From contig DAHVQG010000005.1 of assembly GCA_027317865.1 (NCBI GenBank), forward strand, positions 64,001-128,000: a stretch of DNA of 64,000 nucleotides, given 5' to 3'. The DNA comes from Bdellovibrionales bacterium (GTDB taxonomy: Bacteria > Bdellovibrionota > Bdellovibrionia > Bdellovibrionales > UBA1609). Shown piece by piece: positions 20,451 through 60,865 of the stretch. Under the pieces are notes generated by a model that saw only the letters and a program-made list of their open reading frames with translations, had not been told where the DNA came from and did no database searches. Within the stretch, counting starts at the first letter, position 1. Each line of letters begins with the position of its first letter. The position numbers were made by a program, and so were the translations under genes.

Positions 20451-20638
20451 CTGGTGTCTCCTTAATTTTTTCTTCTTATCATGTACTGGCGGAACAGTAT
20501 ATACAACAACTTTAGAAACAATTGAAAAAATAACCGTTGTAGTGGATGTTTGATAGCAAAATGTTTCTAACAGAGCTCTGCGTCGGCATGTTATAGCAAA
20601 TTGAAAGGCTCGAATACATTTTTGGGGGGGGATCAAAA

Positions 20639-28381: not shown

Positions 28382-29791
28382 TTACGGCGACGAGATCGGA
28401 TCCGAAAACCGCATCCGTTTATAAAGAGTTTTGCGATCGATACCCAATTCGCGGGCTGTCTTGTCTTTAGCGCCATCATTTTTTGAAACTGCGTATTCAA
28501 CATATTTTTGAATGACATCTTGAAGCCGCAAGAGATTTCCCGTGTATTTCACGACGAAATCGTCGCCGCCATAGGTGCTGACGCCTGATGGATTTGCCTC
28601 GATGACCAAATCGGGATTAGCCATCAAAAAATCGGAATATTTCACTTGGCTATCCGTAGCCATGACGACGGCCCGCTCAACAGCATTTTCGAGCTCGCGA
28701 ACATTACCCGGCCAAAGATATTCAAGCATAAATTTAATAGCTTCTTTCGAAAATGTACGCGCGGGTGACCCATTAACAGCGGCAAATTTTTTAAGAAAAC
28801 TTTCAGCTAACGGGAGAATGTCCTCGGAACGTTCGCGTAAAGGCGGCAAAGGAATTGGTATCACATTGAGCCTGTAGAATAAGTCGTCTCTAAACCGGCC
28901 AGCTACGATTTCTAGCGGTAGATTTTTATGAGTTGCCGAAATTACCCTGGCGTCTATGGCGCGCAACTGATTTTCGCCCACGCGCTGAATTTTCTTTTCT
29001 TGTAAGACTCGTAAAAGTTTTGCCTGAAGTTGAAGGCTAAGATCCCCAATTTCGTCTAGGAACAAAGTGCCGCCCTCAGCTTCTTCAAAAAGGCCCATCT
29101 TTTTTTCGTGAGCTCCGGTAAATGCTCCTTTGGCGTGGCCGAACAATTCGGACTCGAGCAGATTTTCTGGTATAGCCGAGCAATTAATGGCTACAAATGG
29201 CCCGGCCTTTCTTGGACTCTCGGCATGAATATAACGAGCCAGAACTTCTTTTCCTGTGCCGCTTTCGCCGTAAATAAAAACGTTGGCCGTGCTACGCGCC
29301 ACTCTTTTCGCTACTTGAAGGGCGCCAATGAATTTAGGGCTGCGGCCGATAATATTGTTGTAACTGCTTTCGGTTCCCTTGATATGTTGACGGAGTTCCG
29401 TAATGTCCTCTTTAAGCGAATTCAAATGCAGGGCGCGCTCGACTGAAACAAGAAGTTGCGGAAAGTGAAGTGGCTTAACCAAAAAATCGTATGCGCCTTT
29501 TTGAATGGCGATGACCGCATTTTCAACGGACTTTGAAACTGTGATTAGAATGATTGGTAAATCAGGTTTGATCTTCTTCATTTTTTCGATGAAATCAAAT
29601 CCTGACATTTGCGGGAGTTGTAAATCGGTAATGAGAACATCCCAATTAATTTCGTTACCTTTTTCTTGAACGGCGGACAAGGCGGATTCCGCGTCGCTGA
29701 AGCAGGTGACCTGGTACCCTTTTGGTTGGAAAAAGGCTTTTACAAGATCTAAAATGTCATTATCATCATCAACGATTGCGAGATTTTTCAA
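28382..29791 (-). CDS. NtrC-family sigma-54 response regulator (REC-AAA+-Fis HTH)
   Basis: DDD/TD/KP receiver motifs, GESGTGKE, GAFTGA, FLDEIG, WPGNVREL and LGIDRKTLY. Confidence 0.95.
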   Translation of the reverse strand: MKNLAIVDDDNDILDLVKAFFQPKGYQVTCFSDAESALSAVQEKGNEINWDVLITDLQLPQMSGFDFIEKMKKIKPDLPIILITVSKSVENAVIAIQKGAYDFLVKPLHFPQLLVSVERALHLNSLKEDITELRQHIKGTESSYNNIIGRSPKFIGALQVAKRVARSTANVFIYGESGTGKEVLARYIHAESPRKAGPFVAINCSAIPENLLESELFGHAKGAFTGAHEKKMGLFEEAEGGTLFLDEIGDLSLQLQAKLLRVLQEKKIQRVGENQLRAIDARVISATHKNLPLEIVAGRFRDDLFYRLNVIPIPLPPLRERSEDILPLAESFLKKFAAVNGSPARTFSKEAIKFMLEYLWPGNVRELENAVERAVVMATDSQVKYSDFLMANPDLVIEANPSGVSTYGGDDFVVKYTGNLLRLQDVIQKYVEYAVSKNDGAKDKTARELGIDRKTLYKRMRFSDPISSP

Positions 29792-29928: not shown

Positions 29929-29944
29929 TGGAATCAAGCTTGCT
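29929..29944 (+). promoter_or_regulatory. Putative sigma-54 promoter upstream of the DUF1328 gene
   Basis: TGGAATCAAGCTTGCT = GG-N10-GC, divergent from the NtrC gene. Confidence 0.55.
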
Positions 29945-30061: not shown

Positions 30062-30244
30062 ATGATTCGAATGGCGATCTCGTTTTTTGTGTTAGCGATT
30101 GTCTCCTTTATTTTTGGAGCGTACGGCATCGCCGGTTTTTCTGCTGAGATTGGCCGGATTCTGCTTTTTGTTTTTCTTGTTCTTGCAGTCGTATCGTTTA
30201 TCGGCGCATTGATTACGGGCCGATCGCCGAGGCAACTGCCTTGA
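30062..30244 (+). CDS. DUF1328 (YtjA-like) small membrane protein
   Basis: M.R.AI.FFVLAIV..IFG..GIAG.SAEI.RIL..VFLVL pattern; RBS AAGGAG. Confidence 0.9.
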   Translation: MIRMAISFFVLAIVSFIFGAYGIAGFSAEIGRILLFVFLVLAVVSFIGALITGRSPRQLP

Positions 30245-30936
30245 CGAAAACGCATTTGAAACAAAGGCATTGTTTGGCGCTGACAGTTTTGTTTTGGACA
30301 GCGACGTGTTTGGCCGCCAGGGTAAACAGTCAAGCGGGCGGAGCTACGCAAACAACGGCGGCAAAAATATCGGCACAGTCAAAAATTCAGCAACGTTACG
30401 GTGGGTTCTATTTTGAGCCAGGTTTTGCTCTTGAGACCGGCCGAACGTCGTCCAGTTATCCCATGACAAATTCGGCCGGTAGCTCTGACGGATTTGGAGT
30501 GCTGGTAAGAGCGGGTTATGAATTGAGACATTTTATAATTGCGGCACTTGATTGGCGAATGGCACTCACTCAATTTCATGACGCCGCACTCGATTACACG
30601 GCTAATGCCACAAGTGCGAATTGGGCCGTATTGGGCGGGCTTCAGATTCCTAACACTGCAGTTAGGGGATGGATCGAATATATTTTTGCCGGCACCTTGA
30701 ACCCAAGTGCGGCCGGCAGTGGTCTTGACCTGCGCTACGGTGGGGCCACAGGGTATCGCATTGGCCTTGGCTATAAATTTGCCACCGATACGAGTGCAAA
30801 TATTGAGTATCAATTACTTCGGTATAACCAAACGCGTGTCGAACAAAGTGGACCCTATACCGGCGTCAATTTTAACGGGAGCACCTTGGGGGATGCCTCT
30901 CTTATTGCCGGGGTTTCGTTTCCGCTCGAATTTTGA
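30241..30936 (+). CDS. Outer-membrane beta-barrel protein (OmpA-TM-like)
   Basis: Signal peptide, alternating aromatic beta-strands (GLGYKF, NIEYQ) and C-terminal Phe. Confidence 0.75.
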   Translation: MTKTHLKQRHCLALTVLFWTATCLAARVNSQAGGATQTTAAKISAQSKIQQRYGGFYFEPGFALETGRTSSSYPMTNSAGSSDGFGVLVRAGYELRHFIIAALDWRMALTQFHDAALDYTANATSANWAVLGGLQIPNTAVRGWIEYIFAGTLNPSAAGSGLDLRYGGATGYRIGLGYKFATDTSANIEYQLLRYNQTRVEQSGPYTGVNFNGSTLGDASLIAGVSFPLEF

Positions 30937-31056
30937 TCATTCTTTTGACAACTGTTAGACAAGAAGCGGCGCTGGCCGGTTGGCCAGGGGCAATTCAGTG
31001 ACATGGTTTCCGCTTAGTTTTGAATTGGAGCTGGCATGGCTTGCAATAGAGATATG

Positions 31057-31147
31057 TAAGTGATTGCGTCGTTGCCCCCCCTCGATAGCAGTCACTTTCA
31101 CCCCCATCCCCCGAGACCTCGCTTTCCCCCCAAAGCGAGGTTTTTTT
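31057..31147 (+). ncRNA. Putative small RNA with C-rich loops (Pxr-like architecture)
   Basis: 14-bp stem 31058-31071/31083-31097 with a C7 loop; linker with two C5 tracts; perfect 10-bp terminator stem with a C6 loop and U-tail. Confidence 0.7.
31116..31147 (+). terminator. Rho-independent terminator
   Basis: ACCTCGCTTT-CCCCCC-AAAGCGAGGT followed by TTTTTT. Confidence 0.85.
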
Positions 31148-31154
31148 ATTGTCA

Positions 31155-31178
31155 ATTATTATACATGCGTATAATAAT
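31155..31178. promoter_or_regulatory. Palindromic operator, probable TetR site, overlapping a TATAAT box
   Basis: ATTATTATAC-ATGC-GTATAATAAT with perfect 10-bp arms, just upstream of the TetR gene. Confidence 0.7.
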
Positions 31179-31221
31179 ATTGAATTGGAGGATGCTGGTC
31201 ACAGATGTGGCAAAACACGTT

Positions 31222-31851
31222 ATGCCTAGACCATCGCACAATATAGACAAGCGAATGCTTGAAGCCGCAAAAAAAATCGTTTGTGAGCACGGCTGTAGTG
31301 GTATTCGGATCCGGGACATTGCGGCCAAGGCGCACGCGAACCTCGGGATGTTTCATTACTACTTCAAAAGTAAGCGGCGATTCACCAAAGTTTTATTGCA
31401 AGACTGCTATGACGATTTTTTTAGCCGTCTTTCGACGGCCTCGCGCGATGGTGACCGTGCAATTGATCAGTTGCGAAGTGTCTTACTTGCCGCGGCAACA
31501 TTCGTGAAGCAAGAACACAAATTTTATTCCGCGCTTTTCAAAGATATTTTAAATGAAAACCAAGAAGTTTTAGAGTTCGTCAGATCGAATTTTCCGCGCC
31601 ATATTCAATTGATAAAGGAGCTGATACTACGGGCGCAAAAGGAGCAAGATATCGTGAAATTGCCCTTTCCACAGGTGATGTCATTTCTAATGACCAGTCT
31701 GAATCTACCGACGCTCATTGCCTATGCTCTTGAGGCGGGCGTGAAAAAAACCGGTCGTACTAGTAAATACAAAGTCGATATAGGCTGCATAGTGTCTGAT
31801 GCGGCAATTAAAGAGCGCCTCAATATGGCGCTCAGGGGGCTTGCGCCGTGA
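31222..31851 (+). CDS. TetR/AcrR-family regulator (CecR/YbiH-like position)
   Basis: RIRDIAAKAHANLGMFHYYFKSK HTH; alternative start at 31192. Confidence 0.9.
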   Translation: MPRPSHNIDKRMLEAAKKIVCEHGCSGIRIRDIAAKAHANLGMFHYYFKSKRRFTKVLLQDCYDDFFSRLSTASRDGDRAIDQLRSVLLAAATFVKQEHKFYSALFKDILNENQEVLEFVRSNFPRHIQLIKELILRAQKEQDIVKLPFPQVMSFLMTSLNLPTLIAYALEAGVKKTGRTSKYKVDIGCIVSDAAIKERLNMALRGLAP

Positions 31852-60041: not shown

Positions 60042-60865
60042 TCGTAGCTCTCTTTCAGCGAAGGGAATGCTCCCGAAGATACATCGCGAGCATAGGAGTT
60101 GAGAGCTTGGGTAAATATTTCGGCGCCAGCGCAATAGCTTCGAACGAACCGCGGGCGAAACTCCGTGTTGAGGCCCAAAAGATCTTGCCAGACTAGAACT
60201 TGTCCGTCGGTGTCGGGGCCGGCGCCAATGCCAATTGTGGGAATGCTTAAGTTTTGCGTGATTTGTCTCGCTAAGGCGCTCGGGACGCATTCGAGGACGA
60301 TCGAAAACGCACCAGCCTCTTCAAGGGAGCGTGCGGCAGCGAGCAAGCGTTCGGCGTCACTTACTTCCCGCCCCTGTACGCGAAAGCCGCCGAGTTGATG
60401 AACGGATTGGGGAGTGAGCCCGATGTGACCCATCACAGGCACGCCAGACTCAACTAGATGACGGACAAAATCTTCGTTACCGACTGCACCCTCAAGCTTT
60501 ACAGCGTGAGCGCCCGTTCGCATGAGCCGCTCAGCAGCCTCAACGTTTGCGCGTAGATCCTTTCGGTATGAAAGAAAAGGTAGATCAGCAACAACAAACT
60601 TTTTGGTTTTTTGAGCGTCGTTTAGACTCGACGCGGATTGCGCTTGCACGGCGCGCGCGACCGAAGCCGAATGAAGCTCCATCATTTCGATAGTGGCCGG
60701 CAACGTAGATGCAAAACCGTGCATGGTCATGGCGGCGCTGTCACCAACCAAAAGAACGTCAATATCGGTTCTGGCGGCGATACAAGCACTTGTGTAATCG
60801 TAGACAGTAACCATTGAAATTTTTTGCCCCGATTTTTTGCGTTTTTTAAAATCAAGTACGTTCAT
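60038..60865 (-). CDS. panB: 3-methyl-2-oxobutanoate hydroxymethyltransferase
   Basis: LVGDS, VKLEG, GHIGLTPQS, IGIGAG and DGQVLV motifs. Confidence 0.96.
   Translation of the reverse strand: MNVLDFKKRKKSGQKISMVTVYDYTSACIAARTDIDVLLVGDSAAMTMHGFASTLPATIEMMELHSASVARAVQAQSASSLNDAQKTKKFVVADLPFLSYRKDLRANVEAAERLMRTGAHAVKLEGAVGNEDFVRHLVESGVPVMGHIGLTPQSVHQLGGFRVQGREVSDAERLLAAARSLEEAGAFSIVLECVPSALARQITQNLSIPTIGIGAGPDTDGQVLVWQDLLGLNTEFRPRFVRSYCAGAEIFTQALNSYARDVSSGAFPSLKESYE

Follow-up and report, generated by a model that had tools for sequence, protein, structure and literature searches.

A predicted C-tract small RNA of Bdellovibrionales, conserved across the order, may act on G-run ribosome sites

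A short C-rich element lies between an outer-membrane beta-barrel open reading frame (ORF) and a TetR gene in the 64,000-nt stretch of Bdellovibrionales DNA analyzed here (hereafter the window, to which all coordinates refer). The source genome, G000, is an assembly of 2.65 Mb with 99% completeness and 47% G+C; other G numbers stand for relatives' genomes and L numbers for loci or records. The fold and a match to covariance model R1 (described below) predict a small RNA of ~91 nt on the plus strand at 31057..31147, consisting of a 5' hairpin, a C-rich linker and an intrinsic terminator. Hairpin 1 (31058..31097, plus strand) has 14 pairs and a single bulged A, with the 5' arm at 31058-31071 and the 3' arm at 31083-31097 enclosing the 11-nt loop UUGCCCCCCCU (31072-31082), which holds a C7 tract (31075-31081). 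The single-stranded 19-nt linker (31098..31116, plus strand) carries C5 at 31101-31105 and C5 at 31108-31112 in the arrangement C5-AU-C5. It is free of pairs in both the minimum free energy (MFE) and centroid structures and is the candidate seed. The terminator (31117..31147, plus strand) is a perfect 9-bp G+C-rich stem (CCTCGCTTT/AAAGCGAGG at 31117-31125/31132-31140) with a C6 loop (31126-31131) and a T7 tail (31141-31147). A G+C-rich hairpin followed by a T-tract defines an intrinsic terminator, and a consensus scan calls the same site independently.

Folding of 31040-31155 with ViennaRNA gave an MFE of -38.4 kcal/mol against -15.3 +/- 2.8 kcal/mol for 200 dinucleotide shuffles (z -8.26), none of which folded as well (0/200). 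An initial reading of the sequence, the first-pass annotation, had described a 14-bp hairpin 1, an unpaired linker and a perfect terminator with a C6 loop, on which sequence and fold agree. Its claim that all four C-tracts are unpaired holds as well, with an unpaired probability of 0.98 for C-run bases against 0.23 for the remaining bases of the RNA. RNAs of the functional class discussed below, to which sX13, 6C and RsaE/RoxS belong, expose at least two unpaired C-rich motifs, and the window copy has four tracts of C5-C7. No other locus in the 2.65-Mb genome contains at least four C5+ runs within 120 nt, and the two other loci with three such runs per 120 nt both look coding. Strict intrinsic terminators (a perfect stem of at least 7 bp plus T6) are rare, with 11 in 2.65 Mb, and the one in the window is the only one with a C4+ loop. 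By BLAST, the RNA is single-copy in the source genome.

Judged from sequence, the predicted RNA is a member of a new, widely conserved Bdellovibrionales small-RNA family of a known functional kind. BLAST against 60 relatives recovered the element over its full length in G006 (78% identity) and fragments in four other genomes. The exact terminator pattern added copies in L058, L096, L103 and L131, from Bdellovibrionales/Pseudobdellovibrionaceae metagenome-assembled genomes, and in L128, which is titled Pseudomonadota. Covariance model R1 was built from 7 copies, including that of the window, and R2 from 33 copies; E-values are rough, and the genomes searched are samples of the family, the order and the phylum, where not found does not equal absent. 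Matches to R1 occur in 17/109 genomes of the same family (E<=0.1) and in 34/151 genomes sampled from the order (E<=0.05), spread over 8/13 families, with strong matches (1e-9 to 1e-15) in three other families of the order. Four genomes (G004, G141, G184 and G201) have two R1 copies each. Of 151 genomes taken across the phylum, R2 matched 23 (E<=0.01), chiefly in the order of the source genome (f1 6/10, f10 7/10, f7 1/1, f9 1/1). Other orders gave weak matches only (f21 4/23, f22 2/14, f26 1/3), and zero matches were found in the genomes sampled from f14 (0/9), f15 (0/20), f17 (0/20), f18 (0/9) and f24 (0/9). The window copy scores 105 bits with R1, a model that includes its sequence, and 89 bits with R2, and independent members score 58-97 bits with R1. 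It shares the family layout of a TTGC box, a 13-nt distance, an AAGTGA-type 5' stem, a C-rich apical loop, a C-rich linker and a C-loop terminator. The terminator loop is C-rich in 40 of the 53 R1 matches tabulated from the family and order scans, and 40 have at least two C4+ runs together with a CCC-containing terminator loop; the remaining 13 appear to be strongly diverged members or false positives. In a genus with many complete 3.4-4.2-Mb genomes, family matches are weak and lack the promoter box.

The covariance-model check proposed at first pass thus turned up homologues with C-loops across the order, and their stems covary. Each homologue checked folds separately into the same plan, with two C-loop hairpins within the 5' stem in G061 and three in G177 and G204. 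Among the 9 close copies, 90.1% of alignment cells are paired compared to 37-51% with slid partners, and two-sided changes occur in 6/19 pairs. Across 33 sequences, 91.8% of cells are paired compared to 29-56% in slid controls, and all 19/19 pairs show two-sided changes. The covariation score of this larger set is 0.50 against at most 0.13 in slid controls, and 0/500 shuffles scored as high. Its hairpin-1 outer stem has 82% of cells paired with two-sided changes in 7/7 pairs, and its terminator 96.8% with two-sided changes in 11/11 pairs. In 9/9 close homologues, hairpin 1 is followed immediately by a C4-C9 tract, and each copy exposes three to five C-runs, most relatives having three. The unpaired probability of C4+ tracts is 0.82-0.99 in 17/17 copies compared to 0.21-0.58 for other bases, a difference that is partly trivial because the family RNAs hold few G. 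Besides the stems, exposed C-runs are the sole family-wide feature of the sequences compared.

The tracts might alternatively matter as DNA, by forming a G-quadruplex or i-motif or by acting as a hypermutable homopolymer switch on the adjacent TetR-efflux or porin genes. A span of 57 nt holds four tracts of 5-7 bases (as G-runs on the minus strand), tract length ranges from C4 to C9 among relatives, and a contig of a related strain (run X3, depth 6) lacks one C of the loop-1 tract. Most relatives, however, have three tracts only, and the flanking genes are not conserved. The T-tail and the promoter upstream mark out a transcription unit confined to one strand, and the covariation of the stems holds for hairpins of RNA or DNA. 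We consider a DNA-level role very improbable.

Other roles were considered and rejected. The neighboring genes vary from genome to genome, and a leader of the downstream gene is ruled out by these differing downstream genes, by the strong terminator and by the separate promoter and operator of the TetR gene. A GTG-initiated ORF at 31060-31851 runs in frame with the TetR gene; a protein-coding reading was discarded given that the indels of homologues are not multiples of three and that their downstream genes are others. An 11-nt direct repeat, TTGAATTGGAG at 31020-31030 and 31180-31190, flanks the RNA gene together with the TetR operator. An inserted mobile element was nonetheless rejected, as such repeats are at chance level (~3 expected within 200 nt in 64 kb by our own estimate) the repeat is absent from the equivalent junction of G005, and the RNA is present once in the genome. 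The TetR gene (31192 or 31222 to 31851) has a sigma-70-like promoter, TTGTCA-N18-AATAAT at 31149-31178, just after the RNA terminator. This promoter is overlapped by a 24-bp palindrome with perfect arms, ATTATTATAC-ATGC-GTATAATAAT at 31155-31178, which is probably the TetR operator of a TetR / TolC-like / HlyD efflux operon.

Upstream of the RNA, family members share a promoter-like box. The sigma-54 consensus (TGGCAC-N5-TTGC) places the GG of the -24 element and the GC of the -12 element exactly 10 nt apart. All close copies have a TTGC-N2-3-TA box, the C of which precedes the AAGTGA stem by exactly 13 nt, and the predicted 5' end rests on this fixed distance between the -12 C and the stem in 8 homologues. 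With a sigma-54 arrangement, transcription would begin with the initial nucleotides of the 5' stem, at 31057 in the window. Canonical GG-N10-GC spacing occurs before TTGC in 26/53 family matches, in the context TTGGC./CTGGC. and TTGC[TA]. The gene upstream is divergent in G002, G061 and G007, which requires a separate promoter for the RNA in these genomes. The box of the window, TGGCATGGCTTGCAATAG (31032..31049, plus strand), has both sigma-54 half-sites with GG-N8-GC spacing (TGGCATGGCTTGC, read as TGGCAT-GGC-TTGC). This is 2 bp too short, as the first-pass annotation had cautioned, and rules out a canonical sigma-54 promoter at this box. The N8 spacing recurs in G006 (TGGCACAGCTTGC) and G005 (TGGCATAGCTTGC). 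A sigma-70 promoter scan found none upstream of 31057, and coding periodicity dominated the genome-wide counts of TGGC[AT]-Nk-TTGC, making them uninformative.

A palindrome, TGTCTCA-N3-TGAGACA, lies 100-180 nt upstream of the RNA in 10/25 copies with at most 3/14 mismatches, compared to 0/25 downstream controls. This position is where an enhancer would sit. The source genome has 38 such sites with at most 2 mismatches, 2 of them perfect, against ~8.5 expected by our own estimate (examples are C1:34775, C33:82358 and C22:82922), and one lies ~95 nt before the start of a flagellin-like gene. Given this frequency and the flagellin-like gene, the palindrome may belong to a putative global regulator. 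In G006 only, a promoter that we take to be sigma-28-like, TAAAGTTT-N12-GCCGATAA (L151:1400-1428), lies ~90 nt upstream of the RNA box and points to the RNA.

Canonical sigma-54 boxes number 32 in a scan of the source genome. One of them, TTGGCATAGGGATTGCT, precedes a second candidate C-tract RNA outside the window (G000:C37:127951-128035, equal to L283:202-286), where the upstream gene is divergent. This C-rich RNA of 55-60 nt would consist of a C6 tract and a terminator with T9 and a 13-nt loop holding C6 and CCC. With filters off, R2 matches it at 24.5 bits as a member lacking hairpin 1, and Rfam returned no match. Comparable short members are present in further families of the order, G039, G137, G136, G143 and G054 being examples. 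In G201, two identical short C-rich members stand in tandem 532 nt apart (L174:1501-1578 and 2033-2110), each with a canonical sigma-54 box.

At the window locus, the RNA follows a small operon. A sigma-54-type promoter of canonical spacing, TGGAATCAAGCTTGCT (29929..29944, plus strand; TGGAATCGTCCTTGCT is the G006 equivalent), stands ahead of a gene for a DUF1328 small membrane protein of 60 aa (30062..30244, plus strand; PF07043, E 3.8e-10). Directly upstream of the RNA lies an outer-membrane beta-barrel, porin-like ORF with an uncertain start codon (30241..30936, plus strand), whose OMP_b-brl score of 23.9 bits is below the Pfam cut-off of 28.7; the ORF is absent at the equivalent place in G006. 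Divergent from the operon is an NtrC-type sigma-54 activator (28382..29791, minus strand) with receiver, AAA+ and HTH_8 domains by Pfam and GAFTGA in its translation. Orthologues occupy the same place in G006 (83% identity) and G005 (82%). A tblastn search with the activator against 37 family loci, each with 1.5 kb or less on either side, found only G006 besides its own locus, and G005 was added later. The RNA follows the DUF1328 gene in exactly three species of one genus, those of the window, G006 and G005. Both prerequisites of sigma-54 control, rpoN and an activator with GAFTGA, are present in the genome. The rpoN gene is recognized by its core-binding domain, Sigma54_CBD (199 bits), at the end of contig C22 (G000:C22:3-560); a Pfam search of the source genome did not find the sigma-54 DNA-binding domain, presumably because it was lost at the contig break, and taken by itself this negative would falsely point to a genome lacking sigma-54. 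The terminator scan found no terminator-like site between 30936 and 31113 on the plus strand. With none between the porin stop at 30936 and 31113, the RNA is at least the 3' end of the operon transcript. As the window box falls 2 bp short of the canonical spacing, the most probable origin of the RNA is the 3' end of the DUF1328-porin transcript under sigma-54/NtrC-type control, either directly or by processing.

Such an origin raises the question of whether the element is anything beyond a terminator and structured 3' untranslated region (UTR) of the DUF1328-porin operon, which would end and stabilize the mRNA without any function in trans and retain the box as a decayed relic. The GG-N8-GC box of the window, G006 and G005, the canonical promoter at 29929-29944 without an intervening terminator, the constant position after the DUF1328 gene in these three species and the rarity of strong intrinsic terminators (11 strict ones in the genome) would all suit a plain 3' UTR. 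A terminator alone, however, needs neither hairpin 1 nor C-tracts. Among G000, G005 and G006 (~78-85% identity over aligned parts), the hairpin-1 sequence changes while its pairing is kept and the C-tracts persist, and the N8 box is kept in all three while its flanks diverge. In other genomes, members of the family are free-standing genes under promoters of their own, and a 3'-UTR origin is in any case compatible with trans action. A plain 3' UTR is thus rather unlikely in our judgment, and a conserved small RNA derived here from an operon transcript remains the preferred reading.

Comparison with known RNAs points to the same functional kind. In Rfam 15, no family matched the window at its gathering threshold, the best relevant row on the RNA's own strand being 6C with 15.8 bits (threshold 47). 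The loci of 16 relatives likewise gave nothing at threshold, the closest being ar14 in L170 with 35.1 bits (threshold 58.8). L170 also has sub-threshold scores for 6C (21.7, threshold 47), sX13 (17.2, threshold 50) and CcsR1 (14.1, threshold 65.3). The nearest Rfam resemblances are exactly the C-rich-loop RNAs. Pxr has no row among the Rfam matches up to E 10 for the window and the 16 relatives' loci.

The sX13 RNA of Xanthomonadaceae (RF02232) has three C-rich loops and does not require Hfq, and in Xanthomonas 5% of ribosome sites carry G-rich motifs. The new family similarly has stem-loops with C-rich loops, G-rich ribosome sites in a few percent of genes (here ~8%) and no Hfq gene in the source genome. 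It differs from sX13 in its lineage, in lacking Rfam membership, in a GG-N10-GC sigma-54-type promoter at 26/53 matches of the new family and, for the window RNA, in C-tracts that also occupy the terminator loop and the linker. The actinobacterial 6C RNA (RF01066) has C-rich loops, acts independently of a chaperone and has dnaB and panD among its validated targets. Shared with 6C are two hairpins with C6-type loops, and dnaB (and dnaA) carry G-run ribosome sites here. Unlike 6C, the window RNA belongs to an unrelated phylum and a genome of 47% G+C, scores 15.8 bits against a gathering threshold of 47, and has targets that are only predicted. For the alphaproteobacterial ar14/NfeR1 (RF02344) and CcsR1 (RF02791), the window itself has no Rfam match, and both are sub-threshold in the relative L170 only. 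The C-loop hairpin, linker and C-loop terminator of L170 align to the last two ar14 hairpins; the first ar14 hairpin is missing, and the loops hold a pure C-run, not CCUCCUCCC. By analogy, the new RNA fits the mechanism of sX13 and 6C, whose seeds form strong G:C pairs with ribosome sites and need no chaperone to do so.

Pxr of Myxococcus offers a parallel in regulation. Its gene is adjacent to that of an NtrC-like regulator, its predicted promoter is of the sigma-54 type with an enhancer region further upstream, conserved sequence lies in the terminator-proximal stem, and the host lacks hfq, according to the passages available of PMC5684412. A nearby NtrC-like regulator, a sigma-54-type promoter, a conserved stem at the terminator and an hfq-less host are shared with the system described here. 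Unlike in Pxr, the activator is near an RNA of the family in 3 species only, where it is divergent and separated from the RNA by the DUF1328 gene. The first-pass annotation had cited Pxr for C-rich loops, a description that those passages do not support, the term 'C-rich' occurring 0 times in them.

G-rich motifs at the starts of a gene subset, the other feature of the functional class, are present in the source genome. The ORF set comprised 2355 ORFs of at least 100 codons with starts chosen by anti-Shine-Dalgarno (SD) pairing, which are our own heuristic calls. A G5+ run ends 0-14 nt before the start in 187/2355 ORFs (~8%; 185-187 depending on the distance window used), with a peak at 4-8 nt, while GGAGG is found in 234. 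G5+ density at ribosome sites is ~14x that in coding sense sequence. Sites pointed out at first pass before 6511 and 12208 (minus strand) and before 20639 and 39901 (plus strand) are in place, as is G8 at 20624. A G6 run also lies ahead of a 275-aa ORF that starts at 60865 (minus strand), which may be the gene named panB at first pass. The neighboring TolC-like gene (start 31848) has GGGGG 8 nt upstream. Seed pairing is stronger in 5' regions than in internal controls, the 5th percentile for the linker being -19.7 compared to -17.1 kcal/mol. Whole-RNA duplexfold against dnaA leaders yielded unrealistically long multi-loop duplexes, of which the ranks alone were used.

The genes behind these sites lean towards exported proteins. 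Pfam on 60/62 genes with a G6+ site recovered secreted-type hydrolases, namely three S8, three trypsin-like, M23, C1 and S28 peptidases, as well as DnaA, DnaB, two DksA-type proteins, FliF and the TolC-like protein. Peptidase-family enrichment was discarded as a test, since picking the families out of that same G6+ list made it circular. A comparison by a crude signal-peptide proxy, which was not post hoc, found signal-like N-termini in 100/186 G5+ genes and in 185/519 other strong-SD genes (odds ratio 2.1, p 2e-5), with 359/1650 among the rest of the genes. A G5+ run is found just upstream of dnaA in 5/6 genomes from four families (G156 being the exception), and a G6 run upstream of dnaB in 3/6 genomes. 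Pfam searches for Hfq and ProQ gave 0 matches in the source genome, as did the Hfq search in 5 other RNA-carrying genomes.

We suggest that the C-tracts pair in trans with G-run SD or start regions and would thereby block translation initiation. Pairing of a C-run with GGGGG would consist of G:C pairs only, where the CCUCC tail of 16S rRNA needs a G:U wobble, and a C-run would meet GGAGG with an A:C mismatch. The RNA would therefore select a subset of genes with G-run sites, that is ~8% of ORFs, biased to exported proteins and including dnaA and dnaB, although we infer this discrimination of GGGGG from GGAGG from pairing rules. With all-G:C pairing, a chaperone would be unnecessary and likely dispensable for the action of the RNA. 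Expression of the family is probably governed by an enhancer-binding protein via sigma-54. A trans-acting anti-G-run-SD function is the best-supported mechanism and, in our estimate, moderately probable. The explanation as a whole, joining a conserved family, trans action of the C-tracts on G-run SD sites, sigma-54 control and an operon origin in this genome, stands a little above even. A bolder extension would see the RNA as a sigma-54/enhancer-controlled "super anti-Shine-Dalgarno" mimic that outcompetes the ribosome on G-run sites only and switches exported hydrolases and dnaA/dnaB together in Hfq-less predators. This would amount to a post-transcriptional attack-/growth-phase switch coded by GGGGG versus GGAGG, and we regard it as unlikely.

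The unpaired C-tracts might instead act as a decoy that titrates a C-binding protein, such as a KH-domain protein, a cold-shock-type binder or Rho, without pairing to any mRNA. Rho loads on C-rich unstructured RNA. The RNA carries three to five near-identical loop motifs, an arrangement known from CsrB/RsmZ and CrcZ, and CrcZ is reportedly sigma-54 dependent, as is proposed for the family here. The prediction of no single dominant mRNA target and the lack of conservation of C-tract flanks across the order would agree with a sponge. Against this, no candidate binding protein was identified here, complementary G-runs sit at exact ribosome-site spacing in ~8% of ORFs, and sX13 and 6C, two characterized RNAs of the same anatomy, act by base pairing. 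We judge protein titration quite unlikely and retain pairing with G-run sites as the preferred mechanism.

Several observations count against that preference. The RNA is known from sequence alone, as the 8 sequencing runs holding the locus are all DNA-type (contigs came from 4 of them, X1, X3, X5 and X7). The alignments behind the covariation counts had been fitted to the model and include kin that are not independent, and covariation is a property of any terminator. The promoter box of the window is GG-N8-GC, a spacing that to our knowledge sigma-54 should not tolerate, and the close copies in G002, G007 and G061 lack GG at -24 and have GCGAGT instead. Repeated identical loop motifs are also a hallmark of protein-sequestering RNAs. 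Gene starts are heuristic calls, the signal-peptide proxy is crude and the energy scan is heuristic. No target stands out, as a single-seed energy of <=-24/-22/-20 kcal/mol is reached in 34/71/135 of 2354 ORFs, and seed pairing ranks the TolC-like gene 149th, dnaA 50th and dnaB 7th. G-runs upstream of ATG are enriched 1.3-2.4-fold over control in 3 RNA-carrying genomes and in 2 without a match, and the G-run trait is therefore not obviously dependent on the RNA. The caveat raised at first pass, that G-run SDs may simply be common, is supported by G5+ runs at ~8% of ORFs and by enrichment in these 5 genomes with and without the RNA. The proposed genome-wide count and functional enrichment gave an exported-protein bias (odds ratio 2.1) and no visible tie to the presence of the RNA. 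Of the overall interpretation put forward at first pass, the conserved structured RNA element with homologues and the complementary G-run sites stand, whereas the common G-run sites and the flat target list point to no specific regulon.

Few small RNAs have been reported for Bdellovibrio-like predators, with eight attack-phase RNAs listed in passages of PMC3627812. None of the reported RNAs is a conserved family for which a mechanism has been put forward. A literature search found no paper on a C-rich or sigma-54-dependent small RNA in the Bdellovibrio group. An Rfam family could be founded on R1, R2 and the alignment of 33 sequences. If the proposed function is true, the family would add a separate case of C:G seed pairing that needs no chaperone, from a lineage with neither Hfq nor ProQ. 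It would also link an enhancer-dependent signal to the translation of a G-run-SD gene class that includes proteases and dnaA/dnaB.

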